Shown here: piece by piece, positions 13,576-35,475 of the stretch | Layout of the letters: each line of letters begins with the position of its first letter | Numbering within the stretch: the first letter of the stretch is position 1 | Source of the DNA: an uncultured delta proteobacterium | GTDB lineage: Bacteria; Myxococcota_A; Polyangia; Polyangiales; Polyangiaceae | Assembly (NCBI GenBank): GCA_963763505.1 | Contig: CAVXOZ010000009.1 | Coordinates: 463,596 to 527,595, forward strand | DNA length: 64,000 nt | Reading direction: 5' to 3' | Notes under the pieces: model-generated | What the model saw: the letters and a program-made list of their open reading frames with translations, nothing else | Database searches by the model: none | Told to the model about the DNA's origin: nothing | Program-made: the position numbers and the translations under genes

Positions 13576-13665
13576 CGGGCCAGGCCGCTGGACTTCGCAC
13601 TAGCCATTTCGAACAAATGACTATAGCTGCCGCGAGACCTCCGTGAAAGGGAGAGGGCGGGCGAC

Positions 13666-17476: not shown

Positions 17477-18871
17477 TTAGGCGGCCGCCACGGAACGGAG
17501 CTCGCCCGCCAGCTCCGTCATCGACTGGTACCGCTCCTCTCGCGGCCGACGCAGGCACTTGAGGATGACGGCTTCGACTCCCGGCGGGACTTCCTCCTTG
17601 AGGCGCGCCCGGAGCGGCAGCGGAGGCTTGGTCATGACGTTGGCGAAGAGAGCCAGGTGACCATTGCCCCCAAACGGGGTGTCGCCCGCGAGGATTTCGT
17701 AGAGCAGAACCCCCATCGACCAGATGTCGGCGCGCAGGTCCACGTCGGTCGCGGCCATCATCTGCTCAGGGGACATGTACGCCGGCGAGCCGACGACCTT
17801 TCCCATGCTCGTGATCCTCGATCCGCCCGCCTCGTCGCCCACGGCGATCCCGAAATCGATCACCTTCACGAGGGGGCCCGCGCCCTGGCCAGCGTCGGCG
17901 AGAAACACGTTGGATGGCTTGACGTCGCGGTGGACCACGCCGAGGGCGTGGGCCTCGGCGATGCCCTCGCACGCGTCGGCGCACCAGGCGAGCGCCTGCC
18001 GGTAGGGTACGCGACCCTGTGTCTCGACGAGGCGGCCTAGGTCGGTGCCTTCGAGGTACTCGAGAGCGAGGTACGGCAGGGCGCCCTGCGTGGCGTCGAG
18101 ATTGCCGACATCGAGGAGCCGGCCGACGTGGGGACTGTGCAGCCGCATGAGGACGCGCGCCTCGCGCACGAACCGCTCGAGAACCTCCTCGTGATTCCGC
18201 CACTCGGGCAAGAGCACCTTGAGGGCGGCGCGGATCCCCCCGCGGTCCCGCGCCTCGAACACGGCACCCGACGCGCCGCGGCCCAGCTCACGGATCACCT
18301 GCCACCGGCCGGCGATCGTCGCTCCCGGCCCGACCGGGAAAGGCGAGGCGGCAGGACCGGAACCACCACCATCGAGTTCGCGACGCAGGCGCAGCTCGCG
18401 CGCGACCTGCCGGGCGAGGCGCTCGAGCGCCGCGAGCTGCCGCGTGGTGAGCGTGCGCGGACGCGTGTCGGCGACAGAGAGCGCCCCGATTGCCGAGCCC
18501 TCCTCGACGAGCAAGGGGACGCCCGCGTAGAAGCGGATGTGCGGATTCCCCATGACGAGCGGGTTGTCCGAGAACCGCGCATCGAGGTGCGTGTCTTCGA
18601 TGACGAGCGGGTGCCGATGGTTGATGCAGTGACCGCAGAACGACAGGTCGCGCGCCGTTCCCTCCTGCTCGACGCCCACGCGTGCCTTGAACCATTGGTA
18701 GTCGGAGTCGACGAGCGTGATGAGGGCAATCTCGGTTCCGCAGAGGTCCGCCGCGAGACGCGCTACTTCGTCGAAGGCTTCCTCGGCCGGCGTGTAGATG
18801 ATGTTGCACGCCCTGAGGAGCGCAAGGCGTCTCTCCTCGTCGTCCGGAATCGGCGGCTCGATCATGGCCAT
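17477..18871 (-). CDS. GAF domain-containing Ser/Thr protein kinase
   Basis: N-terminal GAF (ALITLVDSDYQWFKARVG...FCGHCI). The kinase carries GRGASGAVFEA (Gly loop), ALK (VAIK-like), HRDVKPSNVFL, DFG and SPAYMSPE. Start is probably MAMIEPP at 18871 rather than 18910. Confidence 0.85.
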   Translation of the reverse strand: MAMIEPPIPDDEERRLALLRACNIIYTPAEEAFDEVARLAADLCGTEIALITLVDSDYQWFKARVGVEQEGTARDLSFCGHCINHRHPLVIEDTHLDARFSDNPLVMGNPHIRFYAGVPLLVEEGSAIGALSVADTRPRTLTTRQLAALERLARQVARELRLRRELDGGGSGPAASPFPVGPGATIAGRWQVIRELGRGASGAVFEARDRGGIRAALKVLLPEWRNHEEVLERFVREARVLMRLHSPHVGRLLDVGNLDATQGALPYLALEYLEGTDLGRLVETQGRVPYRQALAWCADACEGIAEAHALGVVHRDVKPSNVFLADAGQGAGPLVKVIDFGIAVGDEAGGSRITSMGKVVGSPAYMSPEQMMAATDVDLRADIWSMGVLLYEILAGDTPFGGNGHLALFANVMTKPPLPLRARLKEEVPPGVEAVILKCLRRPREERYQSMTELAGELRSVAAA

Positions 18872-18968
18872 CCTCGGGTACCACTTCCCGCGATGGCGCG
18901 CGAGAGCCATCCCGACACACTAAAGCCACCACTTGACAGTTTGGAAGGGGCGCCCAATACTCAAGCCG

Positions 18969-19977: not shown

Positions 19978-21147
19978 ATGCCCAAATTGCGACCCGTCAA
20001 CCGTTACTCGTCGTGGTTCGTGCCGGCGTTTGCGATCTTCGCGGTGGCCTGCTCGGCGCACGACCAAGGCGGCGTCGGTTGCGACGTCGGGGGGCTCAAT
20101 GAATGTGGCGTCTGCTGGCCGGCACTGGGCGACCTGGGCGCATCGTGCGTCGCATCGGACGGCTGTTCTGGCACGAAGGTTTGCTCGGCGGATGGCAAGA
20201 CCTCGACCTGCGCGACGTCGAAAGTCGCGAACGCATGCGGCGTGTGCGGGGGAGCGCCGGTCTCAAGCGTCAACACCACGTGCACCACGACGGCGGGCGT
20301 GGCCGGCTTCTCCGTTTGCGACGACATGGGCGACGGAACGGTATGCGCCAGGACCGTCATCACGATGACGTTCGACGACACGTTCTCCGACACACTACAG
20401 GCGCCACCCCTGCTCGAAGCGCATGGATTTCGTGGCACGTTCTTCGTCAACAGCCCGCGCTTCGATCGCGGCACGCACTACATGACCCTTGGTCAGGTGC
20501 TCGACTTGCAGAGTCGGGGGCACGAGATCGGCGGCCATACGCTCGACCACCCTCACCTTCCGACGCTCCTTCCGAATGCGCAGCGGATCGAGATCTGCAA
20601 CGACCGGGCGAGCCTCCTCGCGCAAGGCCTCGACGTGCGGCACTTCGCGTACCCCTTCGGCGAGGCCAATGACGACACCGAGGCCGCGGCGCAGTTCTGC
20701 AATTACGATTCGGCGCGCGGAGTCGGCGACCTGACCGACGCAGACGGAGGGCGCATCGGCGCCGAGAACTACATCCCTCCCGATCCGTTCAAGATCCGCG
20801 CCGACTCGTCGATCATCGACACGAACACCCTCGCGGACCTGCAGGCGCGGGTGCTCACGGGAGAGCAGACCGGAGGCTGGGTCATCATCAACATGCACCA
20901 CATCTGCGCCACGTGCGGTCAGAATGAGGTGACCGTCGAGATCTTCACGGCGTTTCTCGACTGGCTCGAGGAGCACATCCGAGGAACGACCACGTACGTC
21001 CGGAAGGTCCGGCAAATGCTCCCCGGAAGTACGAAGCCGCCCGTGCTCGTGAGCGGCGCCGTGATCCCCGGCGACGCCAGCGATACGACCACGGAGAGCT
21101 TCTCGCTGCACGGCCCGTTCGAAGTCGATACGGATTCGGAGGAGTGA
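19978..21147 (+). CDS. Lipoprotein polysaccharide deacetylase (carbohydrate esterase family 4, NodB homology) with a Cys-rich N-terminal module
   Basis: Signal/lipobox FAIFAVACSA. NodB motifs TFDDTFSDT and HEIGGHTLDHPHL are present. The stop overlaps the start of the next gene (GTGA). Confidence 0.75.
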   Translation: MPKLRPVNRYSSWFVPAFAIFAVACSAHDQGGVGCDVGGLNECGVCWPALGDLGASCVASDGCSGTKVCSADGKTSTCATSKVANACGVCGGAPVSSVNTTCTTTAGVAGFSVCDDMGDGTVCARTVITMTFDDTFSDTLQAPPLLEAHGFRGTFFVNSPRFDRGTHYMTLGQVLDLQSRGHEIGGHTLDHPHLPTLLPNAQRIEICNDRASLLAQGLDVRHFAYPFGEANDDTEAAAQFCNYDSARGVGDLTDADGGRIGAENYIPPDPFKIRADSSIIDTNTLADLQARVLTGEQTGGWVIINMHHICATCGQNEVTVEIFTAFLDWLEEHIRGTTTYVRKVRQMLPGSTKPPVLVSGAVIPGDASDTTTESFSLHGPFEVDTDSEE

Positions 21148-23120
21148 GCGCCGTGTTCCCCACGAACCCTCACGCGCCGCCCGCCCATGGATCGCTGCTG
21201 CACGCGATCGTGCGCGCCGGGTGTCTTTGTGCGGTCGTCTTGGTCGTTTCGCTGTCGGCGTGTGGCCACTTCCCGGTACGCGAGACACCGCAGGTCCCGT
21301 CGGGCAAGGAATCCCTCTACGCATCGCTCAGCAGCGGCACCATCAAGATTGCCGACGAGCTGCTCGCGAACGACTGGGACATCGGCCCGCGCTCGCCCGT
21401 GGCGCACCTGCCCACCCCTCTCTCGTGGACCGAGGATCCGTTCCAGGACCACTACTGGCGGTTCATCTTCTACAGCCTTCGGCCGCTCAGCAATTTGATC
21501 TTTGCGTATTACACGACCCAGAGGACCGAATATCGCGACAAATTGATCCAAATTCTCGAGAGCTATACGGACATCGATTCGGTTCGCGCGCCCGATGCCG
21601 ACACGTTCGACTATAGGCACGCGGCCGCGTTTCGCGCGCTCATGCTCGTCAACTGCTACGGCAAGCTCGTTCGATCGGGCGACATGCCCGCCGACCTCGA
21701 GCCGAAGCTTCGCGTTTCGATCGCGAAGATAGCTGACTTTCTGCTGGCACCCTACAACTTCGAAGCATCCGACAACCACGCTTTCAACGAGGCGGCCGGA
21801 CTGCTCGCCGTCGGGGCCAACTTCCCCGACCTTCCGAACGCACCGGTGTACCTGCAGTCCGCGATAGACCGGCTCGCGTCCGAGATGCAGACGACGGTTG
21901 GTCCTGACGGGGTGGAGATCGAGAATTCGCCGTTTTATCATTTCTACGTACTGTCGGCCGTCATGCAAGACTACGAATGGGCCAGTACGTACCACGAGGC
22001 GCTGCCCGCCGAGTTCGGCGCTCGAGTGAAGGCGATGCTCGAGTACGCGACGCTCATTCCTTTGCCGGACGGGACCTTGCCGCTCCTCGGCTCGACCGTG
22101 ACGTTCGATCTTCGGCAGCTCGACCCGAGAGTCTACACGGAAGACGACATCGACAGCCTCCCGGATGGTCTCACGAGCGATCAGCACTTCGAGTACATTC
22201 GCACCGCGGGCAAGAGCGGCACGGAGCCTACCGAGCGCAACGTCTCGTTCGCGAGCTCCGGACAAGGCATTCTGCGTTCGGCATTCGGGACGCCGGACGT
22301 GTTCGACGCCCAGACACACGTGACGTTCTCCACGAGCCCGTGGCGCAACAACCATACGCACTACGACACTCTCGGAATCAACCTCTACTCCTCGGGTAAC
22401 GTTCTTCTGTCCGATTCCGGCCTCGGTACGTACGTCGCCGGCGCCGAGCACGATTACTTCTGGTCGACGCGCGCGCACAACACCGTCGTCGTGGACGGAC
22501 AGGATCAGGGATCCGATCCTGCCGCGATCGTGACGACCGGGCTCGTTGCGACCGGCGCCGCACCGTACACCTGGGCTTATCAGTCGGGCGCGCACGGCCT
22601 TTACCCTGGGGTCACCCACAAGCGATCGGTCGTTCTTCTCCAGAAGGACCTGGTCCTCGTGGTCGACGCTCTCACGAGCGTTGCGACCCACGACTACGTG
22701 CAGACGTGGCATCTCGGTGCCGGCTTGCGAGCGGATGTCGAGGGCCTGGACGTCGTCGGTCGAACGGCGAGCGGCGAACCGCTCATCCTGGTACATCAGG
22801 CCCTCACGAACGGCCTCGCACTGATGACCAGCTACGGGCAGGACAGCCCGATGCAGGGGTACCTCTCGCTCACGTACGAGAACAAAGTGCCCAACTGGGT
22901 CCTGGAATACAAGGCGACGGCCCAGACCTCCCGTGCCTTCGTGACGCTCCTCGCCTCCGGGCCCTATGCCGCCTCGACCCCGACCGTCACCGGCCTGGCC
23001 GACGGGACCAGCGCAGATGTCACGGTCTGCGCGGGGGACGCCAAGTACGATGTGTCGATCTCGCAGCAGGCGGCCGCCGGTGAAGCGGTCAGCGTCGTGC
23101 CCTCGGCAAGCTGTCCATGA
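21144..23120 (+). CDS. Heparinase II/III-like polysaccharide lyase (alginate-lyase-like N-domain + Hepar_II_III C-domain), lipoprotein
   Basis: GTG start overlaps the CE4 stop. Signal CAVVLVVSLSACG. DHAFNEAAGLLAVGANFPD...IENSPFYHFYVLSAVMQDY and NNHTHYDTLGINLYSSG are typical of the heparinase II/III family. The antisense 625-aa ORF is an artefact. Confidence 0.6.
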   Translation: MSAVFPTNPHAPPAHGSLLHAIVRAGCLCAVVLVVSLSACGHFPVRETPQVPSGKESLYASLSSGTIKIADELLANDWDIGPRSPVAHLPTPLSWTEDPFQDHYWRFIFYSLRPLSNLIFAYYTTQRTEYRDKLIQILESYTDIDSVRAPDADTFDYRHAAAFRALMLVNCYGKLVRSGDMPADLEPKLRVSIAKIADFLLAPYNFEASDNHAFNEAAGLLAVGANFPDLPNAPVYLQSAIDRLASEMQTTVGPDGVEIENSPFYHFYVLSAVMQDYEWASTYHEALPAEFGARVKAMLEYATLIPLPDGTLPLLGSTVTFDLRQLDPRVYTEDDIDSLPDGLTSDQHFEYIRTAGKSGTEPTERNVSFASSGQGILRSAFGTPDVFDAQTHVTFSTSPWRNNHTHYDTLGINLYSSGNVLLSDSGLGTYVAGAEHDYFWSTRAHNTVVVDGQDQGSDPAAIVTTGLVATGAAPYTWAYQSGAHGLYPGVTHKRSVVLLQKDLVLVVDALTSVATHDYVQTWHLGAGLRADVEGLDVVGRTASGEPLILVHQALTNGLALMTSYGQDSPMQGYLSLTYENKVPNWVLEYKATAQTSRAFVTLLASGPYAASTPTVTGLADGTSADVTVCAGDAKYDVSISQQAAAGEAVSVVPSASCP

Positions 23121-23132
23121 CGCGAACCCCGG

Positions 23133-24428
23133 TCAATCCATCGGGCAGACGTCGGCGCTTCCGATGCGCGTGGGGGGTCTCGGGCCGCATTGCACGACAA
23201 CGAGCGGGTGCGGGTGGGGGTGCGCCCGGTACCCAGGCGGCGGCCCGAGCGAGAACTCCGGCGCAACGCCCCTCAGCCCGCGACGCGCATCGACCATTTG
23301 TCCGGGTGGTTCGAGCTGGTTTCCCCAGATCGAGACGGGGCCGCACCGCTGCGTCGTCTCCTCGGTGAGCTCGACCCCGAGGCGATAACCCCGAAGCGTG
23401 TTGTTCCACACCACGCCCGCGCCGCCCCGAATGCGGATGGCCCAGCCGTCGTAAAACGGCAGGCCGTGGTCTGGCTGCTCGATGAGATTGTCGTGCACGT
23501 CGATCCACTCGCCTCCGACCGCCGATCCGAACTCCGCTCCGTGCGCGTCGATGGCGTGTGCCACGACTCCGCTGGTGACGTAGTTGTTGCGGAAAACGTA
23601 GCGACCGCCCTTGTTCGACGCGATGGCATGACGGCAGAGGGAGAACCGTGAGTCCTCGACGACGGTCGCTTCCGGGATCCCACCGGGCGACTGCTGCCCC
23701 AGGGCGACGCCCGTGAGGGCGTTCGTGCCGTAGACGGCCACGCCGTAGCCGTCGGTCCCAATGGCCGGCTTGTACTCCGCGTAGAAGGAGCAATGATCGA
23801 CGACGCCCCGGCTCGTCCCGTTGGTGCGCACCCCGGCGAATCCCATATGAGCGAAGTAGGAATGGTCGACGCGAAAGTCCTGCGCGTCGTCGAGCAGAAC
23901 GCCGACGTCCTTTCCCCTGGAACCTTCGTCGGCGACGCCCTCGAAGCGCAATCCGGAGATCTCGAAACGGCGCGCTCCAATGACACGCACCAGCGGGCGA
24001 TCGCTTGCGCTGGCCGGAGCCGACACGAGGGTGGCGGCCGAGCCGTCTGCCGTCGATCCCAAGTCCATCGAGCCCGCGCCCGCGCCAAGAAGAAGGACAT
24101 CGTCGCTGCGGACGATGATGGGAGCGTCGACCTCGTAGCGGCCGGCCGGCATGACCACGATCGATGCGGGCCCGGCTCGATCGACGGCCTCCTGGATGGC
24201 GCGCGCGGTAGGCTCACGCACCGTCACGACCGCGCGCCAGCGCCGCGGCCCGACGAGGTAGACGGAGCTCGTGGAGGCAGCCGGCCCCGGGATGCCTTCC
24301 GCCGGTGACATCGGCGGGGGAGCCGCGAACGCACTGCGTTCGGTGCCGGTCGCCGGGCGAGTGCAACTCGACATCAGCACGGCTGCGCCCAGCATGCGCG
24401 GCGCGGGGAACGAGCAGGGCACCTTCAC
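23133..24428 (-). CDS. Secreted right-handed parallel beta-helix repeat protein (pectate-lyase fold; candidate polysaccharide lyase or C5-epimerase)
   Basis: Signal MLGAAVLMSSC. Repetitive xGxxVxxNxF/VxxS beta-helix rungs (VDHCSFYAEY, FRNNYVTSGVVAHAIDAHG, DVHDNLIEQ). Its start overlaps the stop of the upstream OMF-like gene (same operon). Confidence 0.55.
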   Translation of the reverse strand: MKVPCSFPAPRMLGAAVLMSSCTRPATGTERSAFAAPPPMSPAEGIPGPAASTSSVYLVGPRRWRAVVTVREPTARAIQEAVDRAGPASIVVMPAGRYEVDAPIIVRSDDVLLLGAGAGSMDLGSTADGSAATLVSAPASASDRPLVRVIGARRFEISGLRFEGVADEGSRGKDVGVLLDDAQDFRVDHSYFAHMGFAGVRTNGTSRGVVDHCSFYAEYKPAIGTDGYGVAVYGTNALTGVALGQQSPGGIPEATVVEDSRFSLCRHAIASNKGGRYVFRNNYVTSGVVAHAIDAHGAEFGSAVGGEWIDVHDNLIEQPDHGLPFYDGWAIRIRGGAGVVWNNTLRGYRLGVELTEETTQRCGPVSIWGNQLEPPGQMVDARRGLRGVAPEFSLGPPPGYRAHPHPHPLVVVQCGPRPPTRIGSADVCPMD

Positions 24429-25675
24429 GGGGACCCTATCGCCGCCGTCAACGCGCGCACATGCGCGGTCAGATAGGCCTCTTCCGAGCGCATCCGGACG
24501 ACATCGAACCAGACGTAGTCGGCATAGTCCGCGGCCCGGGGAGCGTTCAGGTCCAGCATCGTCTTGGTGCGCTGTTCCAGGTCCGAGCGCAGAGCCACGA
24601 CTTGCCGCAAGCGCTCCGCATCGGCGTCGAGCAGAGATCTGAGCTTTTCGATCGCAACGCGCGCCTGGTCGGCCTCACGCTCGGTCTGGGCCGCCGACCA
24701 TTGCGCGCGCGCGGCCGCGGCACGAGCCTCTGGCGGGCCTTGCGCGAGCCAACCGGTGCTCATGGTGATCCCCACCACGCCGAAGAACGGAAACGGCTGG
24801 TCCGTCCCCAGAAAGCGATCGTACCCGCCCTGGATCGTCAACTCGAAAGCGGACAGGCGGCGCAGCTGCGATTCGACCCGTTCGATCTGCGCCTCGGCTC
24901 CGGCTCGAGTGGCTACGAGGCGATCGACATCGGTCAGGGGCAGGGTCGGCAGATGAAGGCCGGCGAGGTGCTCGCGAGCGTCGGCTTGGAGCTCCCGCAG
25001 AGCGTCCATGCGTATCGTCGCCGCGTCGAGATCCTGCATCGTGGCCTGTCCGATCGCCACGTGTTGCTGGATCTTGTCGACGATCGCTTGCGCTTGGGGC
25101 ATTGCTTGCTGGAGTACGTTCAGTTTCGCGGACCACCCCGACGCCGCGAACGAGTCGGCGTCGAGAGTCGCCAGGGCGCGAATCTGCAGGGCCACCCGGT
25201 ACCGCTGGCACTCTGCGCTGGCGTAGCTCGAGGCGAGCGCACCGCGGTAGAAATTGGTGGGACTGAAGCCAGCGCCCGCGAGCACGCGAGGGTAGGCGGT
25301 CGGCGTTGCGATGTCGGCCGCCGATACACCACCCAGCGTATGGACCGGAATGACGCCTGCCTCGGCGAAGAGCCATGGCGACTTGTCGATCGCGCTCTCC
25401 GACGCCGCGGCCGCGCCGATGAACTCACAATACGCTCGCGACTCGGCTTCCAGCTGCTTCGGCGTCGAGGCTCCCGCCTCCGGTGTGTCGATCGGTCCGA
25501 TCGCCGCGGACGTCCCGAACGAAGACGATCCGGCCCGTGGCGTGGGCTGCGCTGCAGCCGTCGTCGCGACCGCAACCAGGGTCGCGCCGCTGGCCGCAGC
25601 CACCGCGCGCGCGACGACGGCGCGCACGACCCGAAGGCGGCTCCCTCGCAAGCATCCCGGCAGTGACGTCTGCAT
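24425..25675 (-). CDS. Outer-membrane factor-like protein (TolC/OEP family candidate) of a tripartite exporter
   Basis: 416 aa with a signal peptide. Ala/Leu/Gln-rich heptad segments in two halves. The position directly downstream of the HlyD-like gene fits an OMF. No strict motif verified. Confidence 0.4.
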   Translation of the reverse strand: MQTSLPGCLRGSRLRVVRAVVARAVAAASGATLVAVATTAAAQPTPRAGSSSFGTSAAIGPIDTPEAGASTPKQLEAESRAYCEFIGAAAASESAIDKSPWLFAEAGVIPVHTLGGVSAADIATPTAYPRVLAGAGFSPTNFYRGALASSYASAECQRYRVALQIRALATLDADSFAASGWSAKLNVLQQAMPQAQAIVDKIQQHVAIGQATMQDLDAATIRMDALRELQADAREHLAGLHLPTLPLTDVDRLVATRAGAEAQIERVESQLRRLSAFELTIQGGYDRFLGTDQPFPFFGVVGITMSTGWLAQGPPEARAAAARAQWSAAQTEREADQARVAIEKLRSLLDADAERLRQVVALRSDLEQRTKTMLDLNAPRAADYADYVWFDVVRMRSEEAYLTAHVRALTAAIGSP

Positions 25676-25685
25676 TCGGCTCGTC

Positions 25686-26816
25686 CTACAAGAGCAGGGG
25701 TTTTCGTTTCACATGCAGAACGGGTTGCTGCGCCCAGCTCACTTCGCCGAGCTGGAGTTGAACGAGCTCTCCACGCAGCTCGCGCTCGAAGACCGGGTGC
25801 TTTTGCAGAATTTCGCCGTCGAGGAGGGCGACCACCACACCGATTCGAGAGCATCCAAGAACGCCGAGCAGGCGGCACCCATACACCGGGGTTCCAGGGT
25901 GGACTCCGTCGAGGTTCTCGTACGGCGCAAACGCGACCGTCAGGTTCTCCGTGGCTGCCTTGAGAAGCGGCTGGTTTTCGATGGCCGTCAGCATCCGGTC
26001 GTACTGCGCGACCACGGCTTGGTTCGATCGAATGCTCTCCGCGAGCGCGCCTTTCAAGTCGGTGGCGCGCGCCTCGGACACGACGGATTGCAGGTAGTCC
26101 TCCTGCAAGCGAACCAGTTCGGGGCTACCGGCCGTCGCCCCGCCCTTGCCCCCGAGCATCGCCTCGACTCCGGACAGGCTCACGAGCTGGTGCCGTAGCG
26201 CGGCCACGTGCGTCTGAAGCTCGACGCCCTTTTCCTCGAAGCCGTAGTTGTTGCTGGCCATCTCGGCGAACAGATGCTTCGTCGTGAGCATGGTGTCGTT
26301 GTCGATCATGTGCGCGTCGAACAGCTGCTGCACACGTTCGAGCGACAGCTGGGCGAAGGCTTCGTTGGCGGGGCGAATCTGGTCGCTCGCTCGGTCGCGC
26401 TCGCCGTTCAGCGAGTCGAGCGCGTGCAGCTGGTCGCGTACGGCGCCCATCTCGGAGCCAAGGGCCTTCTTCAGCGCAATCTGAAAGGCCCTCTCGCCGT
26501 CGATGGTGCGCTCGGCATCTGCGAGGCGGGCCTTGAGCTCCGCGGCCTGTCCAGCCACGACTTCGCGCCGCGACGATTCCTCCGCGTGACGAGAGCTCAG
26601 GTCCTGCACACGCGGGTCCGCCGCCGTGATGATCATCGGCGCGACCCAGGCTCGGTGTACGAAGTAAAATGCGCACTGCCCGAGGTAGAGCCCCAGGCCG
26701 AGGAGAATCGCGAACAGAATCGCCAAGCCCAGGAATTTGTACGCCGACACGATGACCCGGTTCAGCGGGATCGCGGAGAACGGCGACGGACGGAAGGGCG
26801 TGGTGCGAGCCGTCAT
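25686..26816 (-). CDS. HlyD-family membrane-fusion (periplasmic adaptor) protein
   Basis: Start MTARTTPFRP at 26816 overlaps the GT2 stop (ATGA). One N-terminal TM helix (VIVSAYKFLGLAILFAILLGLGLYL), a long coiled coil and a C-terminal beta domain. The upstream 138 codons of the ORF-track entry are non-coding overlap. Confidence 0.55.
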   Translation of the reverse strand: MTARTTPFRPSPFSAIPLNRVIVSAYKFLGLAILFAILLGLGLYLGQCAFYFVHRAWVAPMIITAADPRVQDLSSRHAEESSRREVVAGQAAELKARLADAERTIDGERAFQIALKKALGSEMGAVRDQLHALDSLNGERDRASDQIRPANEAFAQLSLERVQQLFDAHMIDNDTMLTTKHLFAEMASNNYGFEEKGVELQTHVAALRHQLVSLSGVEAMLGGKGGATAGSPELVRLQEDYLQSVVSEARATDLKGALAESIRSNQAVVAQYDRMLTAIENQPLLKAATENLTVAFAPYENLDGVHPGTPVYGCRLLGVLGCSRIGVVVALLDGEILQKHPVFERELRGELVQLQLGEVSWAQQPVLHVKRKPLLL

Positions 26817-28045
26817 GGGGAGGTTGATCCTGCGAGAACACCGGCGGACGCGGCGTCGGGCCCCGACGGGGGCGTGTGCCCCCGAGTTTCCCAGCTCGAC
26901 GAGTCGAGCGTGAAGAGCGCGAGCGGCGTGTAGAGCACGTAGGTCACCGGCATGATGATGCCGAGCGAGAGAAACCATAGAGGGTGGACGCGCTGCGATT
27001 CGGGCTGATCCCGGACATCGAAGTGATACAGGGTGCCGAGCAGCGCCAGCGTGGCGAAGTGAAAAATGGCGAGTTCGAAGAACGTCCCGCGGACGAGATT
27101 GCTGAACACGACGACTGGATACGACAGGAGCATCGCGAACATCGAGACGTAGTGCAACGTGATGAGTGGATGCCGCTTCCAGATGTGGGTGGCACCGACC
27201 AGGAAGTCGACGATGTTCGACCGACGCCACCGGAGCTGCTGGGAAAAGTACTTGGCGATCGTGTCGGGGGCCTTCGTCCAGCAGATCGCGGCGAGCGTGC
27301 TGCCGGTCCTGTAGCCGGCCTTCACGATCTGATTGGTCAAAAAGCGGTCCTCGCCGTACTTGATGGGCACCCCGAACATCTCGCGTTTCTCGAGAATCGG
27401 CTCGAGCTCGACGAGCACGGAGCGCCTATACGCGGTGAGGCAGCCCGATAGACACATGACCGTGCCGAACGCGCGCTCGATGTTCTTGAGATACTCGTAC
27501 CCGAAGTGGTACTTGATCGCCTGCATCCGGGTGAGCCAGTTCTGGTTGGCGTTCGACACGTTGACGCGACCGCCCACGGCGGCGATCGCGGGCTCCACGA
27601 AGCGTGCGACGAGCTGGCGAATGGCGTCGGAGTTCACGACGGTGTCCGAGTCGACCGAAACGATCAGCTCGGACGTCGCGAGCCTCACCGCGTGGTTGAT
27701 CCCGCGGCGCTTCCCCATGTTGTACGGGTTGCGAAGAACGGTCACCTGCTCCGGCCACCGTTTGGCCGCTCCGAGCGCCCACGTGTAGCTGTCGTCCTTC
27801 GAGCAGTCGTCGACGACGGTGACCTTCAGCTTGTCGAGGGGATATTCTTGCGTGAGCAAGCTCTCGATGGTGTCGACGATCGAGCGGCCCTCGTTGTACA
27901 TCGGGATGACGACCGTCACGGTGGGCTCGTAGCCGGCCACCGTCCTGTCCCAGCGCGATCCGCTGGCTCGCCGGAGGAACATCCCGAGGAAGTACCGATT
28001 GATGAAGACCAGAAGAACGATCAGCGCAATCGGAAAGAGCAGCAT
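26813..28045 (-). CDS. Processive family-2 glycosyltransferase, NodC/hyaluronan-synthase/chitin-synthase-like (QxxRW)
   Basis: Start MLLFPIALIVLLVFINRYF at 28045. Motifs VVIPMYNE, DDCSKDDS, VDSDT, GCLTAYRR and QQLRWRRS with flanking TM helices. This is the hallmark of processive beta-glycosyl polymerases. Confidence 0.8.
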   Translation of the reverse strand: MLLFPIALIVLLVFINRYFLGMFLRRASGSRWDRTVAGYEPTVTVVIPMYNEGRSIVDTIESLLTQEYPLDKLKVTVVDDCSKDDSYTWALGAAKRWPEQVTVLRNPYNMGKRRGINHAVRLATSELIVSVDSDTVVNSDAIRQLVARFVEPAIAAVGGRVNVSNANQNWLTRMQAIKYHFGYEYLKNIERAFGTVMCLSGCLTAYRRSVLVELEPILEKREMFGVPIKYGEDRFLTNQIVKAGYRTGSTLAAICWTKAPDTIAKYFSQQLRWRRSNIVDFLVGATHIWKRHPLITLHYVSMFAMLLSYPVVVFSNLVRGTFFELAIFHFATLALLGTLYHFDVRDQPESQRVHPLWFLSLGIIMPVTYVLYTPLALFTLDSSSWETRGHTPPSGPDAASAGVLAGSTSP

Positions 28046-28367
28046 ATCAAAAACGCCTCGGCAAACTGCGTAACATCCCTCGGGGAACCCCGTACGTGTG
28101 AAGACTGAGGAGGCTCCTCCCAAATGGGTGCGCGAAGGCCGCGCAGCGCCGCGAGGTGCATAAGCGAACTTGACGGGCGGCAAGCTAGCGGGGAGAGCGG
28201 TCCGAACAAGCAAAGTTACTGTGTCGTCTGTGCTACTGGGGGAAGTCGGCGCGGCAGGGCCGTGCGGATCCGGTGCCGCGCGCCGACCCAAATGACCCGC
28301 ACAAGTTGCACGGTCGACAAGACGAGCGGCGCGCAGGTGGTAAGGAGCGGGGCTGGAGCGCATCCCC
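28046..28367. promoter_or_regulatory. Divergent promoter region between the GT2 synthase operon (-) and the UDP-sugar dehydrogenase (+)
   Basis: 322-bp non-coding gap between two divergently oriented starts. Inference only; no consensus promoter identified. Confidence 0.4.
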
Positions 28368-29651
28368 ATGAGCAGCGAACGAATCGGCGTGTTGGGTCTG
28401 GGCTACGTAGGGCTTCCCGTCGCGCTTGCGTTCGCGCGCAAGTTCGAGGGGACGATCGGCTACGACGTGAATCCCGATCGCATCGAGGAGCTGCGCCGCG
28501 GTCAGGACAGAAATCAGGAAGAACCGAGCGCAAAGCTGCTCTCCAGCCGCCTGGGCCTCACCAGCGACCTGGCGGAGCTCCGGGGCTGCACCTTCTTCAT
28601 CGTCGCCGTTCCGACGCCCGTGGATGGGAACAACGTGCCCGATCTGACGCCCGTCGAGCGCGCCAGCGAAGCCGTGGGTCGGGTGCTCTCCCGCGGCGGC
28701 GTCGTGGTGTACGAATCCACCGTCTATCCCGGCGTCACGGAGGACGTCTGCGGTCCGATCCTGGAGCGCGTCAGTGGCCTCAAGCGAGGCGTGGAATTCA
28801 CGGTGGGGTACTCGCCGGAGCGGATCAATCCGGGGGACCCCGATCACAGCTTCGAGAAGATCACGAAAATCGTGAGCGCGGAGGACCCCGAGACGCTCGA
28901 GCGCGTCGCGGCGACGTATGGAGCCGTCGTGGACGCGGGGCTACACCGCGCACCGAGCATCCGGGTCGCCGAGGCGGCCAAGGTCATCGAAAACACGCAG
29001 CGCGATCTGAACATCGCGCTGATGAACGAGCTCGCGCTCGTCTTCGATCGAATGAACATCCGAACCGCGGACGTCCTCGCGGCGGCAGAAACGAAGTGGA
29101 ACTTCCTCCGATTCCGCCCCGGTCTGGTCGGAGGCCATTGCATCGGCGTCGATCCCTACTACCTGACCACCAAGGCGCAGCAGCTCGGGTACCAGCCGGA
29201 AGTCATCCTGGCCGGGCGACGGATCAACAACAACACGGGGCCGTTCATCGCCCAGCGGCTCATCAAGCTCTTCGTTCACGCGAACCTGCCGATCAAGGGC
29301 GCCCGCGTGGGGGTGCTCGGCTTGACGTTCAAAGAGAACTGCAGCGACATCCGCAACAGTCGGGTGCCGGACATCGTTCGGGAGCTCCGGCAGTTCGGGA
29401 TCGAGGCCATGGTGCACGACCCCCTGGTCAAGCCGGCAGACGCGATCCGCGAGCACGGTGTGAAGCCCGTCGCCTTCGAGGAGCTGGAAGGGCTCGACGG
29501 GCTCGTACTGGCGGTCAGTCACAAGTGGTATCTCGGACTTGGGCAGCCGCGCCTTCTGTCGATGCTTCGCGACGGCGGCACGCTCGTCGACGTGAAGAGC
29601 GCGCTGGACCCGGCGAAGCTCGAACGGGGCATCCAGTACTGGAGTCTTTGA
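28368..29651 (+). CDS. Nucleotide-sugar 6-dehydrogenase (UDP-glucose/GDP-mannose dehydrogenase family; TviB/WbpA/WecC-like UDP-N-acetylhexosamine dehydrogenase)
   Basis: N-terminal GVLGLGYVGLPVALAFA Rossmann motif and catalytic GGHCIGVDP (GGxCxxxD). The C-terminal UDP-binding domain is present. Confidence 0.85.
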   Translation: MSSERIGVLGLGYVGLPVALAFARKFEGTIGYDVNPDRIEELRRGQDRNQEEPSAKLLSSRLGLTSDLAELRGCTFFIVAVPTPVDGNNVPDLTPVERASEAVGRVLSRGGVVVYESTVYPGVTEDVCGPILERVSGLKRGVEFTVGYSPERINPGDPDHSFEKITKIVSAEDPETLERVAATYGAVVDAGLHRAPSIRVAEAAKVIENTQRDLNIALMNELALVFDRMNIRTADVLAAAETKWNFLRFRPGLVGGHCIGVDPYYLTTKAQQLGYQPEVILAGRRINNNTGPFIAQRLIKLFVHANLPIKGARVGVLGLTFKENCSDIRNSRVPDIVRELRQFGIEAMVHDPLVKPADAIREHGVKPVAFEELEGLDGLVLAVSHKWYLGLGQPRLLSMLRDGGTLVDVKSALDPAKLERGIQYWSL

Positions 29652-30621: not shown

Positions 30622-31320
30622 ATGGTGGATGAGTTGTTCCTGACTCTGATGGTCGTGGGCTTGGTGGGCCTCTTCATGATGGCATTGCCCGCCTTCAAGC
30701 ATCACGGTCATGTGCACCCCGGCCACGCTGGTCGCGCCGCTCTCATCCGCGGGTCGCCGAGATCGGCCGGACACGCGGGCGGGGACCGGACGGCCGTCAT
30801 GGCCGACGCCGGTGGCGCGGTGAGCGCCGCCAGCGCGGGCCGTGAGATCGCCCCCTCGGACACGAGGCTGGCGTGGCTCCTTCGCTTCGTCCCCTCCCCG
30901 CGCGCTCTCTGCAGCGTGCTGGCCCTTTACGGGGCCTTCGGCAACGCGCTCGTTCATGCCTTCCACATGCCCGTCGGCCCCGCCGTGCTCGTGGCCGCGC
31001 TCCTCGCGCTGCTGGTCGAGCGCCTGATCGTGCGGCCCGTCTGGAATCTGCTGTTCCACTTCCAGGGGCAGCCGAGCTCTCCGCTCGGGGTCCTCGTCCT
31101 GTCCGAAGCCCAGGCGGTGGTGCCTTTCCGTAACGGGCGCGGCATGGTCTCCGTGGTGCGCGACGGTCGCGTCGTGCAGCTCGCGGCGACCCTGCGCGAG
31201 GACCACGCAGGACTCTCCGTGCGTGTCGGCGATCGCCTACGCATCGACGACGTCGACGCGCGGCGCGAGCGCGTCGTCGTCTCGGTCATCGATCACGTCA
31301 TGTTTGCGCAGAAGCCTTGA
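30622..31320 (+). CDS. NfeD-like membrane protein (OB-fold C-terminus), partner of flotillin
   Basis: N-terminal TM helices. C-terminal GMVSVVRDGRVVQLAATLREDHAGLSVRVGDRLRIDDVD is the NfeD OB-domain signature. Confidence 0.65.
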   Translation: MVDELFLTLMVVGLVGLFMMALPAFKHHGHVHPGHAGRAALIRGSPRSAGHAGGDRTAVMADAGGAVSAASAGREIAPSDTRLAWLLRFVPSPRALCSVLALYGAFGNALVHAFHMPVGPAVLVAALLALLVERLIVRPVWNLLFHFQGQPSSPLGVLVLSEAQAVVPFRNGRGMVSVVRDGRVVQLAATLREDHAGLSVRVGDRLRIDDVDARRERVVVSVIDHVMFAQKP

Positions 31321-31333
31321 GTCAGGAGCCCCC

Positions 31334-32668
31334 ATGCCCGAGCCGTCGCTGATCGTTGCCGGTGTCGTCGTCGTCCTCGTCGTGCTCCTGACGATGGGCA
31401 TGATCGCCACGTTCTTGCGCAGCGTGGACGCGGGCGAGATTCTGCTCGCCAGCCGGGGCAGGAACCTGCGCATCTACCGCGGCCCGTGCAAGGCGCTCAT
31501 CGTGCCGGTGATCACGCAGATTCGCATCATTCCCGCGCAGGCCATCAACGTCGACATCGAGATCACCGACCAGACGGCCGACGTGGACCCTTCCGGGCGT
31601 TCGGCGCCCGTGAAGGTCACGGTGAGGGCCTCGGCCATCGTGAGCGTCGGCGAGGACGAGTCGATGGTGAGCACCGCGGCCAACAAGTTCTTCTCGAAGT
31701 CCGGCGGCGAGCAGCTCTCGACGCTCACCGACGTGCTCTCGTCGGCGGGTCGGCGGGCGATCAACCTGCTCAAGCACGATCAGCTCTTCAGTATCCGGTC
31801 GTACACGACGGCGCCGGCGCCCAGCACCGCGCTGACGGTGCCGGGCTCGAGCGACCTGGCGGTGGTGCAGGCGCGCGGCGAGGACGACGAGCTGGCGGTC
31901 ATCATCAAGGACGCATGCTCGCGCGAGCTCATGGATCTGGGCCTCTCGTTCAACAGCTTGAACATCAAGGCGGTGCTCAGCGAGGTGGCCGAGGCGCGGC
32001 GGCGCGAGTCGGCGGCTCGAGCGAAGGCCGACGCCGACGTCGTGCAGGCCCAGGAGGAGCAGCGTGCGCGCATCGCGCAGCTCGAGGCAGCGCAGAAGGT
32101 CAACGATCAGGAGCGCGCGCTCAACATGCAGATCGCCGCCAACGGCGCCGCGGTCGCGAAGGCCGAGGCCGAGAAGCAGGCCGCCGTGCGCGGACAGCGC
32201 GAGGCCACGCTGGGCGCCCAGCAGATCACTCAGGCTCGCGCCGACGCCGAGCAGAACGTCATCCAGCAGGAGGCCGAAGGCCGCGCGCAGGCGGCCCGCA
32301 TCCGGTCCGTCGCCGAAGCCGAGGCCGAGGCGATTCGCATGAAGGCCGTGGCCCTGATGGAGGCGGGCGGGGTCTATCTCGATCTGCGACGGCTCGAGCT
32401 GGCCCCCGAGCTCACCCGGCAGGTGGCCGCGGCCCTGGCCAGCAGCCAGTTCGTCAACTTCGGCACCAGCGGTGGAGCGGGCGGCGATCACGGCGCCGTG
32501 ACCACGGGCTCCGACGACATCCTGCGCGTGGTCCAGACGCTCATGGCGGCGCAGGTCATCACCGGCGGCGGCCTTCGCGCCAATGGCGAGGTGAGCGCGG
32601 TCGCCGCGCCTCCTCCGGTGCCCTCTTCCCCGCCCCTTGCGCCACCCGCGCGGCCGCGCGGGACGTGA
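31334..32668 (+). CDS. Flotillin / SPFH-domain protein (FloT/YqiK-like)
   Basis: ATG at 31334 gives MPEPSLIVAGVVVVLVVLL (TM). SPFH domain followed by an Ala/Glu-rich flotillin repeat region (AEAEKQAAVRGQREATLGAQQITQARADAEQ...EAEAIRMKAVAL). The antisense 539-aa ORF is an artefact. Confidence 0.85.
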   Translation: MPEPSLIVAGVVVVLVVLLTMGMIATFLRSVDAGEILLASRGRNLRIYRGPCKALIVPVITQIRIIPAQAINVDIEITDQTADVDPSGRSAPVKVTVRASAIVSVGEDESMVSTAANKFFSKSGGEQLSTLTDVLSSAGRRAINLLKHDQLFSIRSYTTAPAPSTALTVPGSSDLAVVQARGEDDELAVIIKDACSRELMDLGLSFNSLNIKAVLSEVAEARRRESAARAKADADVVQAQEEQRARIAQLEAAQKVNDQERALNMQIAANGAAVAKAEAEKQAAVRGQREATLGAQQITQARADAEQNVIQQEAEGRAQAARIRSVAEAEAEAIRMKAVALMEAGGVYLDLRRLELAPELTRQVAAALASSQFVNFGTSGGAGGDHGAVTTGSDDILRVVQTLMAAQVITGGGLRANGEVSAVAAPPPVPSSPPLAPPARPRGT

Positions 32669-32673
32669 GTCGC

Positions 32674-33014
32674 ATGTTCCGAATGCTCGTTCTGGGCGGC
32701 ATCGCTCTCGTCGGGGGCACAGCGTGTGGCAGCACCCCGGTCCAGGTCGAGGCGGGCGCTCAGGACGGATCTCCGAGCCGTCCGTGCAGCCGGATGCCAG
32801 CGTCTTGACGACGCGGCGCGAGGGAGGACAGGCCGCAAGCGACGGGGCCTCGGAGGCAGGGTCGGACGCGGCCGCCCATGCGCCGTCACCGCCGAATGCC
32901 CGCCTGCAAGAACCTCGAAAAATCGGTGACTGTTTGGCCAAGGGAGAGTGCCTACCACTCGGCCCATGTGCAACATCGCCGTCGGCTGTTACCGGCGTTC
33001 TGACGGCATGCTGA
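32674..33014 (+). CDS. Possible small lipoprotein (apparent frameshift near 32780)
   Basis: MFRMLVLGGIALVGGTACGS lipobox immediately after the flotillin stop. The downstream frame continues as ...GECLPLGPCATSPSAVTGVLTAC only after a +1 shift. Confidence 0.25.
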
Positions 33015-33120
33015 GGCAGGACCAGCGGCCGGCCGTAGTACGCCGACGGTCCCGCGCTGACTTGCGGCCAATGACGTCGAGGCCGAGCGAGTCAGGCAGG
33101 ACTCGCTATAGTGCCGGCCC

Positions 33121-34149
33121 GTGCTCCGGTTGCTTCCGTTCGCCGCGATCGCCGGCGTGCTCCTCCTCTCCGCCGGCCATGCGGCCGCCGCGCCCACGGG
33201 CCGCCTCGTGTATTCACGGGCACCCGGCGCCGAGTCGTGCGCTGACGAGGCCACGCTGCGTCGGTCCGTCGCGGCCCGTGTGGGCTACGACCCGTTCTTT
33301 CCCTGGGCGAAACGAACCGTCGTCGCGAACCTGGCCCGCCAGAGTCGGGACTTCGTCGCGGTGGTTAGCCTCGTCGACGAGGAAGGTGTCGCGCACGGCG
33401 GCCGCGAGCTGCGCACGAGCGGCGATTGTGCGGAGCTCCTCGACGCGACGGCCCTCGCGATCGCGATCGCGATCGATCCCGAGATCCTCACCCACCCCGC
33501 GCCGCCCTCCACTCTCGCGGGCGGGAGCGGACCGGGCGGGGTCGCGCCCGGCGTGGTGGGCGAACCCGCCGCTCCGCCTGCCGCGACGCCACCGGTCTTC
33601 ACCGCGCCGGCCCCGCCGGATGTACCCACCTCGCTGCAACCACCTCCGGCGACGCGTCCCGCGGACTTCGAGGCGACCCTCGGTGCGGTCGCATCGAGCG
33701 GCAGCGCGCCCGACCTCGCAGTCGGCCTGAGCGCGGGAGCGCAGGTCCGGTGGCGCCACGTGTCGGTCGGTGTCGAAGGGCAGGTCGATGCGCCCGCCTC
33801 GCGGTCCGTGCAGGGCGGCGACGTGTCCGCCTGGGCGGTGCTCGGCGCCGTCGTGCCTTGCGCGTATTTCGGGCCGTTCCTCGCGTGCGCGGTCGCGCAA
33901 GGGGGCGCCCTGAGAGTGTCGAGCGGCGGCGTCCCGGAGACGCACGCGACCTGGACGGGCTCCTGGCAAGCGGGCGCGCGCGCGGGCGTCCTCATTCCGG
34001 TCGGGGAGAGTCTCTTTCTGCGCGTCCACTCGGATCTGCTCGTCAACCTCGACCGCGCACGCCTTGAACTCCGAGTTGGTCAAGTGGTGTGGACCGCCCC
34101 GCTGTTCGACAGTTCGCTCGGAATCGACGCGGTCGTGCGTTTTCGATGA
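33121..34149 (+). CDS. Hypothetical secreted protein (first gene of the ECF sigma operon)
   Basis: GTG start with signal MLRLLPFAAIAGVLLLSAGHAAA. Pro-rich central linker. The stop overlaps the ECF sigma start (ATGA). Confidence 0.55.
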   Translation: MLRLLPFAAIAGVLLLSAGHAAAAPTGRLVYSRAPGAESCADEATLRRSVAARVGYDPFFPWAKRTVVANLARQSRDFVAVVSLVDEEGVAHGGRELRTSGDCAELLDATALAIAIAIDPEILTHPAPPSTLAGGSGPGGVAPGVVGEPAAPPAATPPVFTAPAPPDVPTSLQPPPATRPADFEATLGAVASSGSAPDLAVGLSAGAQVRWRHVSVGVEGQVDAPASRSVQGGDVSAWAVLGAVVPCAYFGPFLACAVAQGGALRVSSGGVPETHATWTGSWQAGARAGVLIPVGESLFLRVHSDLLVNLDRARLELRVGQVVWTAPLFDSSLGIDAVVRFR

Positions 34150-34727
34150 CGAACCGGAGCGCCCCCGGCCAAATCCCTGGAGTGGTGGTTCGCGTCGCCT
34201 CCTCCGCGGTCGCCCTCGAGGCCGGGGTCGCGATGCGCGACGTGTACAGCGCGTACGCGGCTTACGTCTGGAATACCCTCCGCCGGCTCGGTGCACCGGC
34301 GTCGGAGCTCGAGGACCTGACGCACGACGTCTTCGTGCAGGTGCAGCGCCACCTGGACGACTACGACCCGACGAGGCCGATGAAGCCCTGGCTCTTCGGC
34401 TTCGCGCTCCGCGTCGTCTCACAGCACCGGCGGCGCGGGAGGCGTCACAAGGAAGGGCCGGGCGAAACGGGCGACGCCGTCGATCCGGCCCCGCTGGCCG
34501 ATGAGCGACTGGCGCTCGAGGACGACCAGCGTCTCGTCCTCGCCGCGCTCGGGGCGATCGAGTCCGAGCGGCGCGCGGTCTTCGTTCTCTACGAGCTCGA
34601 TGGCGTGACCATCGACGAGATTGCGCGCACGATGAGCATCCCCGTCAACACGACGTACTCGCGGCTGCGCGTCGCGCGAGCAGAGTTCAGGGCCGCGGTC
34701 ACGCGGCTCCGACGAGGTGGGCGATGA
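34146..34727 (+). CDS. RNA polymerase sigma-70 factor, ECF subfamily
   Basis: Region 2 is YAAYVWNTLRRLGAPASELEDLTHDVFVQVQRHL. Region 4 is VFVLYELDGVTIDEIARTMSIPVNTTYSRLRVAR. Confidence 0.8.
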   Translation: MTNRSAPGQIPGVVVRVASSAVALEAGVAMRDVYSAYAAYVWNTLRRLGAPASELEDLTHDVFVQVQRHLDDYDPTRPMKPWLFGFALRVVSQHRRRGRRHKEGPGETGDAVDPAPLADERLALEDDQRLVLAALGAIESERRAVFVLYELDGVTIDEIARTMSIPVNTTYSRLRVARAEFRAAVTRLRRGGR

Positions 34728-35434: not shown

Positions 35435-35475
35435 TGAAACGCGGCGGAGCGGCCAAACAAAGAGTGGAGGCCGTC

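Follow-up and report, generated by a model that had tools for sequence, protein, structure and literature searches.

In the classical synthase-dependent systems of polysaccharide secretion (alginate Alg8/Alg44/AlgK/AlgE, BcsABC, PgaABCD and Pel) a membrane-bound family 2 glycosyltransferase (GT2) couples polymerisation to export, and genes for lyases, hydrolases and deacetylases of carbohydrate esterase family 4 (CE4) accompany the synthase. Alg44 carries a periplasmic domain that resembles a membrane-fusion protein (MFP). Here we describe a locus which is like these systems in both respects, and in which a GT2 gene is followed by genes for an adaptor-like coiled-coil protein and for a TolC-like outer-membrane factor (OMF). 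These three genes, the triad hereafter, lie in a 64,000-nucleotide stretch of DNA from an uncultured delta proteobacterium of the Polyangiaceae; the whole stretch that was analysed is called the window. An earlier interpretation made from the letters alone (the sequence-only reading) had assumed that synthase-dependent export always proceeds via a tetratricopeptide repeat (TPR) scaffold and a beta-barrel porin. This premise is outdated in view of the Xcs and Bgs proposals, as these are set out in PMC12430437, PMC8892547 and PMC13438883.

For cyanobacterial cellulose a route through XcsA, the HlyD-like XcsB and TolC was proposed (Maeda et al. 2018, as cited in PMC12430437 and PMC8892547), and this tripartite model "remains to be experimentally confirmed" (PMC12430437). 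The triad resembles the Xcs system, as described there, in having an inner-membrane processive GT2 and a membrane-fusion-type protein, often encoded in one operon, with a TolC-type exit proposed and no ATP-binding cassette (ABC) or resistance-nodulation-division (RND) pump. In the same accounts the Xcs synthase is of the BcsA type with a PilZ domain and makes cellulose, whereas the synthase of the triad is of the hyaluronan synthase (HAS)/NodC/chitin synthase type and has no PilZ; XcsB is recognisably HlyD-like and the adaptor of the triad is not; and the gene for the TolC partner lies away from the Xcs genes, whereas the dedicated, divergent OMF gene of the triad follows 10 nt after the adaptor gene. 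In 2026 tolC was shown to be genetically required for the BgsAB mixed-linkage beta-glucan of Sinorhizobium meliloti, an indirect role not being excluded by the authors (PMC13438883). BgsA/BgsB/TolC, for which a tripartite complex was proposed, is like the triad in that GT2 synthase and MFP are encoded in one operon; its TolC is a pleiotropic housekeeping protein, in contrast to the dedicated OMF described here, its BgsA is a glucan synthase activated by cyclic diguanylate (c-di-GMP), and its BgsB is termed HlyD in that paper (PMC13438883). A route consisting of a synthase, an HlyD-like protein and TolC is therefore already known as a kind, and the novelty claimed in the sequence-only reading is overstated because both proposals precede it. 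New here are the synthase clade, an adaptor family without detectable relation to HlyD, and a private, minimal OMF encoded within the operon.

Our preferred interpretation, to which we give slightly better than even chances, is that the triad constitutes a self-contained three-protein machine which makes a polysaccharide and exports it across the envelope. The operon to which it belongs in the window consists of four genes:

26813-28045, minus strand: GT2 synthase, 410 aa, with the ATG start of the sequence-only reading
25686-26816, minus strand: adaptor-like protein, 376 aa, single transmembrane (TM) helix and coiled coil
24425-25675, minus strand: TolC-like OMF, 416-aa precursor with a signal-peptide-like N-terminus
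23133-24428, minus strand: beta-helix protein, 431 aa, GTG start

These open reading frames (ORFs) are packed back to back between 23.1 and 28.0 kb and leave no space for separate promoters. The packing had been noted before, and every junction could be read directly in the DNA. The TGA of the GT2 gene (26815-26813) is overlapped by the ATG of the adaptor gene (26816-26814) in cccATGAcgg; the TAG of the adaptor gene (25688-25686) is followed, after 10 nt (gacgagccga), by the ATG of the OMF gene at 25675; and in cGTGAagg the GTG of the beta-helix gene (24428-24426) overlaps the TGA (24427-24425) of the gene for the 416-aa protein. The 410-, 376- and 416-aa products are already called as genes, without names, in public assemblies, which supports the chosen start codons. 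The G+C content of the window is about 68%, and a terminator scan detected no terminator-like site above chance inside the operon.

Scanning species-representative genomes gave 140 loci, 80 of which were retrieved and form the basis of the counts given here. In 77 of the 80 the adaptor gene is directly preceded by a GT2 gene of the same class, the contigs of the other three ending at the adaptor gene; of 74 ORFs directly downstream of the adaptor, 72 are homologs of the 416-aa protein. The spacings are approximate estimates, based on tblastn coordinates and on the earliest start codons possible; they amount to at most 20 nt between GT2 and adaptor in 59 of 77 loci and between adaptor and OMF in 46 of 74. 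The hosts belong to the Myxococcota (Myxococcus, Corallococcus, Pyxidicoccus, Archangium, Hyalangium, Sorangium), the Acidobacteriota (Terracidiphilus, Sulfotelmatobacter and others) and the Betaproteobacteria (Acidovorax, Xylophilus). The flanks vary by lineage: there is a phosphopantetheinyl transferase and an allantoicase gene in Corallococcus, TctC in Acidovorax, and a histidine kinase with a sigma-54 regulator in Acidobacteria, and in none of these three groups do the neighbours have a connection with polysaccharide export. The whole seven-gene set of operon and accessory genes is retained in close relatives of the window, and a 52%-identical relative retains the triad and a CE4 enzyme. 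Since the triad is kept while its flanks change between lineages, GT2, adaptor and OMF-like protein are the conserved functional unit, and the genes for the dehydrogenase, the deacetylase, the lyase-like protein and the beta-helix protein are accessories of particular lineages. The translational coupling of all four genes, as it had been claimed, thus stands for the window and its close relatives; the beta-helix gene, which was found in close relatives only, lies outside the conserved three-gene core.

No ABC, RND or major facilitator superfamily (MFS) pump was detected among the flanking ORFs scanned in the window and four representative loci, which agrees with the earlier statement that the unit has no ABC or RND pump of its own. 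Likewise, the scanned flanks of related loci and the window ORFs contained no match to a TPR porin, a polysaccharide co-polymerase (PCP) or an outer-membrane polysaccharide export (OPX) protein. Of the 17 ORFs scanned between 10.9 and 41.2 kb of the window, none matched a family of TPR scaffolds or porins (AlgK/E, BcsC, PgaA or PelB type), and six match no family whatever. The triad differs in this from the classical systems, as no TPR scaffold and no 16-18-stranded porin was matched among the window and related-locus ORFs scanned and the predicted exit is TolC-like; it differs from them also in that no c-di-GMP receptor domain was found on its GT2 or adaptor.

The lack of a local pump gene makes an unlinked partner possible, and housekeeping TolC often has unlinked partners; the neighbourhood could therefore be incidental, the adaptor and OMF serving an efflux pump or a type I secretion system with a transporter encoded elsewhere, and the GT2 having nothing to do with them. 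We hold this to be very improbable: the GT2 gene is directly upstream in all 77 loci that reach that far, in at least three phyla and between unrelated flanks, stop/start overlaps join the genes, and neither adaptor nor OMF matches efflux or type I secretion family models at the family level. An incidental efflux pump was accordingly rejected on the strict GT2-adaptor-OMF synteny.

Triads were also seen in metagenome-assembled genomes labelled Fredinandcohnia (L028) and Spirochaetales (L036 and L037). Their GT2s are 55-61% identical to the window GT2, which falls within the myxobacterial range, and the G+C content of L037 is 72%; these contigs are probably mis-binned and are not evidence for the module in Firmicutes or Spirochaetes. 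In Sorangium cellulosum So ceGT47 (L013, 11080-12729) about 1.6 kb separates the adaptor gene from the OMF-like gene; the gap holds a 343-aa minus-strand ORF without a Pfam match, and a WbqC-like gene comes after the OMF-like gene. In Xylophilus sp. ASV27 (L056, 11025-13412) one frame of about 795 aa spans the OMF-like position and the dehydrogenase; either a gene fusion or a frameshift from sequencing may account for it.

The GT2 was matched by the Pfam families Glyco_tranf_2_3 (1.3e-33), Glycos_transf_2 (1.9e-31) and Chitin_synth_2 (6.8e-24), and its best NCBIfam profile was NodC (192.7 bits, E 1e-56, profile positions 38-394 of 395). This score is far under the 550-bit cut-off of the NodC equivalog (TIGR04242), so the protein is not NodC itself. 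Its closest solved relatives are hyaluronan synthases, namely 8smm (7.1e-24) followed by the Chlorella virus enzyme (7sp7/7sp6). The 8smm alignment covers GT2 residues 123-390 including the C-terminal membrane region, and the motifs VDDCS, DSD, GEDRF and QQLRW of the translation are aligned with the same motifs of 8smm. An N-terminal TM helix and C-terminal TM helices were predicted; the family scans gave no PilZ or other receptor domain, and the enzyme is not of the BcsA type. Judged by these matches, it is a member of the HAS/NodC/chitin synthase clade of membrane-embedded GT2s, with class I hyaluronan synthases and NodC as its closest sequence relatives. The HAS and chitin synthase members of this clade are processive, and NodC makes short oligomers, not a polymer. 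A nucleotide-sugar dehydrogenase gene is adjacent in has operons and a CE4 deacetylase gene in nod clusters, and this locus is similar to both. Streptococcal HasA acts in a single-membrane envelope, and NodC products exit via the NodIJ ABC transporter. We know of no HasA or NodC paired with an adaptor and an OMF in one operon; a targeted full-text literature search gave no counter-example and no description of this GT2-adaptor-OMF triad.

With NodC as the best profile over nearly its full length, the product might instead be a short chitooligosaccharide or glycolipid, exported by the adaptor and the OMF to serve as a signal or as a surface glycolipid. The CE4 deacetylase nearby has a weak NodB match, and NodT-family OMFs exist, one of which (6u94) is among the fold matches of the 416-aa protein; OMFs of this type are thought to export Nod factors. 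We nevertheless judge such a product improbable, since the NodC score stays so far below its cut-off, the conserved unit includes neither NodIJ-like ABC genes nor an acyltransferase, and the closest solved relatives are the polymer-forming hyaluronan synthases. Furthermore, from the neighbouring heparinase-like lyase and beta-helix enzyme one would expect a long polymer that contains uronic acid.

In the 416-aa protein the N-terminus, as read from the translation, has a basic stretch, a hydrophobic stretch and AAA/QP and is thus signal-peptide-like. No meaningful Pfam or NCBIfam match was obtained. An AlphaFold2 (AF2) model built on seven relatives (pLDDT 67) consists of long helices of up to 62 residues with strands at 277-284 and 298-305. 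One hairpin segment is accordingly at 277-305 and a candidate first beta-hairpin, poorly modelled, at about 95-136; in the model the protein thus has the two beta-hairpins and long antiparallel helices of the protomer fold. When this model was searched with Foldseek against the PDB, ranks 1-39 were exclusively OMFs (TolC, ST50, VceC, OprM, OprN, CmeC, CusC, SilC and MtrE), with a best E of 1.7e-7, a probability of 1.00, about 330 aligned columns and TM-scores of 0.3-0.4 to OMF structures. The TolC-like character of the protein, which had been suspected from its heptad repeats, was borne out by this result.

At the sequence level the relation is fainter. Among 79 members of the family, aligned from syntenic loci, 14 matched Pfam OEP weakly (E<=1). 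With 23.9 bits, the Myxococcus ortholog L011 surpassed the gathering score of 22 bits, its match extending from position 14 to 172 of the 187-position profile; L023 (19.2 bits) and L001 (17.2 bits) stayed under that score. An hhalign comparison of the family with TolC was weak and in the correct OMF register (repeat 2, probability 11%; repeat 1, 0.3%), aligning the strand-to-helix segment and the helix motif G-x-x-T-x-x-D-(V/L). When the N-terminal half was compared with the C-terminal half to look for an internal repeat, the strand-to-helix segments again fell at equal positions, weakly (E 0.049, probability 1%). C83 and C156 are invariant in the family. Taken together, the modelled fold supports a very divergent and short OMF of the TolC type, of which the sequence membership is borderline; the mature protein would have about 350-370 residues and appears to do without an equatorial domain.

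A PCP (Wzz/Wzc-like) with an OPX or other coiled-coil protein, forming the pair of a Wzy- or ABC-type export system, had been named beforehand as the alternative assignment of the 376- and 416-aa proteins, and PCPs likewise have long periplasmic helices. It is scarcely credible by now. The 376-aa protein has one N-terminal TM helix and no C-terminal one instead of the two of a PCP; no Wzz, GNVR, Poly_export or SLBB match was found in the window proteins or in the 95 and 79 members of the two families; the fold matches of the 416-aa protein are exclusively of the TolC type; and there are no Wzx, Wzy or ABC genes in the unit. On the single TM helix, the lack of PCP or OPX family matches and the TolC-type fold, this pair was rejected.

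The adaptor-like protein belongs to a family which was easily missed: word-index homolog searches gave 5 and 8 relatives only, and it was the exhaustive profile search together with the genome scan that revealed it. The profile search recovered 742 representatives at E<=1e-3 and 639 at E<=1e-10; the family comprises about 740 clusters at 50% identity, and no Pfam model covers it. According to the AF2 model (pLDDT 73; H18-54, E57-60, H68-169, H173-221, H232-280, strands 294-369) the architecture comprises a short cytoplasmic tail, an N-terminal TM helix, a strand, a helical hairpin of about 100 plus 100 residues, and a C-terminal beta domain of about 85 residues. The model reproduces the single TM helix, long coiled coil and beta domain that had been proposed from the sequence, and its topology matches the outline of the periplasmic adaptor proteins (PAPs), in which a membrane anchor is followed by a beta part interrupted by a long helical hairpin. 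The strand at 57-60 was assigned to the C-terminal sheet, with which it may pair, because the model has no other strands. The beta part is modelled as one domain of about 85 residues, in contrast to the lipoyl plus beta-barrel domains of PAPs.

Conserved positions are found in every part of this architecture. The TM helix is conserved (Y26, L34, G40), which suggests a specific membrane partner, and W57 and P60 are invariant directly outside the membrane. An A-x-L-I motif (168-171) is conserved at the predicted turn of the hairpin and aligns weakly with the tip region of EmrA; it is an indirect hint that the hairpin may dock with its tip on the OMF. C314, C322, E335, R348 and G349 are invariant in the C-terminal domain, the Cys pair fitting a periplasmic location.

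Among solved structures, Foldseek placed EmrA (4tko) first, with E 1.3e-4 and a TM-score of 0.25, and MacA and EmrAB-TolC were also matched (E 5e-3 to 2e-2). The structural comparison with HlyD/EmrA and TolC/OprM that had been suggested beforehand thus gave a TolC-type fold for the 416-aa protein and an adaptor that is only weakly EmrA-like. The triad resembles the EmrAB-TolC and MacAB-TolC pumps (4tko, 8zal, 3fpp) in that an adaptor which is TM-anchored, has a long hairpin and lacks a large membrane-proximal domain would bridge a small inner-membrane partner to an OMF. It differs from them in that the inner-membrane partner is a glycosyltransferase and not a transporter, in that its adaptor has one beta domain instead of lipoyl plus beta-barrel domains and no similarity at the profile level, and in its OMF, which is short when mature and, judging by length and model, apparently without an equatorial domain.

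The assignment of the 376-aa protein to the HlyD type, made in the sequence-only reading, could not be maintained: the outline is similar, the fold match is weak, and HMM and profile searches gave no support in the window protein or in 95 relatives. The Pfam and NCBIfam scans gave no meaningful match for the window protein, and none to the HlyD family. A homolog search from EmrA returned near-identical EmrA orthologs only, from which no diverse PAP profile was obtainable, and an iterative search with hidden Markov models, started from EmrA and TolC and run on every ORF of the retrieved loci, gave two bona fide PAP/OMF pairs and never recruited the new families. The modelled architecture suggests that the 376-aa protein works like an adaptor; it should not be classed in the HlyD family.

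Several results weigh against the export machine that we prefer. With regard to the adaptor, coiled coils dominate its fold searches and the TM-score to EmrA is as low as stated; the HlyD-type Pfam models (HlyD_3, HlyD_D23, Biotin_lipoyl_2 and newer PAP models) match none of the 95 relatives at E<=1; the family profile found generic coiled coils only among PDB sequences; and hhalign gave a probability of 0.2% against EmrA, of 4.9% against an alignment of seven PAPs (E. coli genes and two ORFs from the retrieved loci), and no match for the C-terminal domain alone. As to the OMF, the window protein has no Pfam OEP (PF02321) match at E<=0.1, its family profile found no OMF among PDB sequences, and its first beta-hairpin is poorly predicted; the confidence of both models is moderate (pLDDT 73 for the adaptor, 67 for the OMF-like protein). 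The best full-length profile of the GT2, NodC, is that of a maker of short oligomers. The targeted literature search returned no experimental report on any member of the families. Finally, three exported tailoring enzymes are encoded at this locus, and a sealed conduit would bar them from the polymer.

This last point, together with the missing relation of the adaptor to the HlyD family and its one small beta domain, speaks for the same proteins working across an open periplasm. The coiled-coil protein would in this case be a cofactor or scaffold of the synthase in the manner of Alg44, BcsB or PgaD, which makes the GT2 active or stable and leads the chain past the tailoring enzymes, and the TolC-like protein would be only an outer-membrane pore. 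One adaptor homolog with a C-terminal TPR-like extension, the scaffold type of the classical synthase-dependent systems, fits such an arrangement too. However, a hairpin of about 100 residues with a conserved tip motif would be hard to explain for a mere activator, and TolC-type channels are shut at their periplasmic end and are normally opened by the adaptor hairpins of tripartite pumps. Moreover, in most lineages the triad occurs without adjoining tailoring enzymes. An open-periplasm arrangement is in our opinion unlikely, though it is to be taken seriously.

The homolog just mentioned, P0106 (889 aa), has a C-terminal extension of about 320 residues with weak TPR_19 matches and may be a fusion which joins the two export styles, TPR being the scaffold type of classical synthase-dependent export. 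About 40 representatives of the adaptor family (P0014-P0133, 430-660 aa) have N-terminal extensions of 100-320 residues ahead of the TM helix. In ten homologs that were scanned these contained no PilZ and no Pfam domain at all; they may result from wrongly placed starts in high-GC DNA, or else be disordered tails in the cytoplasm. The adaptor and OMF-like relatives P0004 and P0013, both from one 45.5-kb ENA contig, look frameshifted: P0004 starts with GT2 C-terminal sequence and its adaptor match spans 22% of the query only, and both were excluded from the alignments. A plasmid collection contained a single adaptor match, at 1235143-1236087 of NZ_AP023182.1 (Paraburkholderia sp. PGU19, 1.44-Mb replicon); it is 27% identical to the query, 87% of which is aligned, and lies in a record without annotation.

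If the three proteins do act as one export machine, the following course can be proposed. The GT2 would polymerise a beta-linked N-acetylhexosamine-type chain from UDP-sugars and thread it across the inner membrane, as modelled on class I hyaluronan synthases. Beside it the adaptor, probably oligomeric, would be anchored by its conserved TM helix, with the small beta domain at the membrane surface and the hairpin of about 150 Å reaching into the periplasm. The tip of the hairpin would meet the dedicated, minimal TolC-like channel at its periplasmic end, and the chain would leave the cell through this channel, which is presumably trimeric. Polymerisation itself would drive export, with no ABC, RND or MFS pump. 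In the organism of the window a TviB-like dehydrogenase may make a uronic-acid precursor, and three predicted lipoproteins (the CE4 deacetylase, the heparinase-like lyase and the beta-helix enzyme) may tailor or trim the polymer.

The accessory genes that lie outside the operon and the spacer next to it are these:

19978-21147, plus strand: CE4 polysaccharide deacetylase, 389 aa, Pfam Polysacc_deac_1
21144-23120, plus strand: heparinase II/III-like protein, 658 aa, Pfam Hepar_II_III_C/N, convergent with the operon
28046-28367: divergent intergenic region, 322 bp, separating the GT2 and dehydrogenase genes
28368-29651, plus strand: nucleotide-sugar 6-dehydrogenase, 427 aa, TviB/WbpA/WecC branch, divergent from the operon

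The 322-bp spacer is presumed to be the shared promoter region of the GT2 and dehydrogenase genes; a promoter scan gave no sigma-70-like consensus match in it, and Rfam no match. The dehydrogenase scored 443 bits with TviB (cut-off 592), passed the cut-off of an NDP-sugar dehydrogenase subfamily with 349 bits, and reached 80 bits only with the UDP-glucose dehydrogenase TuaD. It is likely to supply a UDP-N-acetylhexosaminuronic acid precursor, and in the loci of Acidovorax and Xylophilus its gene comes right after the triad. The heparinase II/III-like protein (Hepar_II_III_C 7.2e-26, Hepar_II_III_N 1.9e-21), which has a lipobox-like N-terminus, is likely a lyase for a uronic-acid-containing polymer; its gene adjoins the operon also in a 75%-identical relative and in an ENA contig with the same locus. 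Directly upstream of it stands the gene of the CE4 deacetylase (Polysacc_deac_1 5.4e-18, weak NodB match, lipobox-like N-terminus), and CE4 genes recur close to the triad in L081, L009, L013 and L033. The right-handed beta-helix protein (Beta_helix 2.5e-6, Pect-lyase_RHGA_epim 2.1e-4; lipobox-like N-terminus, LMSSC) is probably an enzyme that modifies or cleaves a polymer. Judging from the TviB-like dehydrogenase and the heparinase-like lyase, the polymer of this organism may contain N-acetylhexosaminuronic acid; the CE4 enzyme suggests that it is partly de-N-acetylated.

Between its lipobox and the catalytic domain the deacetylase has a Cys-rich spacer (residues ~30-110, with C-x-x-C repeats and GVCGG-like segments) that matches no family. 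About 1 kb from the deacetylase gene, a minus-strand gene at 17477-18910 encodes a GAF domain fused to a Ser/Thr protein kinase, which could be a regulator of the polysaccharide locus. Farther away there is a 1249-aa protein (13627-17376, plus strand) with RCC1/RCC1-like repeats in its C-terminal third and about 900 unmatched N-terminal residues. A gene for an extracytoplasmic function (ECF) sigma factor (34089-34727, plus strand) lies amid ORFs with a high G+C content at third codon positions and no Pfam match (30622-34149, 35431-36576, 39554-41233 and 10912-12132). Together with the relatives of the locus, the kinase, the RCC1-repeat protein and the sigma factor make a myxobacterial source of the window probable.

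Taking all lineages together, we tentatively propose, at somewhat less than even chances, that the triad is a widespread autonomous module in which a GT2 of the HAS/chitin synthase type replaces the energised transporter of a tripartite pump, and an adaptor unrelated in sequence to HlyD links it to a private, minimal TolC-like channel. It would represent either a separate branch of such assemblies or a convergent re-invention for glycan export, and the bacteria that carry it (Myxococcota, Acidobacteriota and Betaproteobacteria) would probably use it to secrete an acidic N-acetylhexosamine polymer not yet described.

So far, a TolC-type exit for polysaccharides is a proposal made for two glucan systems. 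The triad offers a cleaner test case, as it has its own OMF in the operon and stands alone as three genes in many genomes; these two features make the route directly testable, and the loss of the dedicated OMF should leave drug efflux and type I secretion undisturbed. The triad extends the idea of a TolC exit from glucan synthases to the hyaluronan/chitin synthase clade and defines two unannotated protein families, that of the adaptor and that of the OMF-like protein. It also points to an uncharacterised, probably acidic polymer of the N-acetylglucosamine type in soil bacteria.

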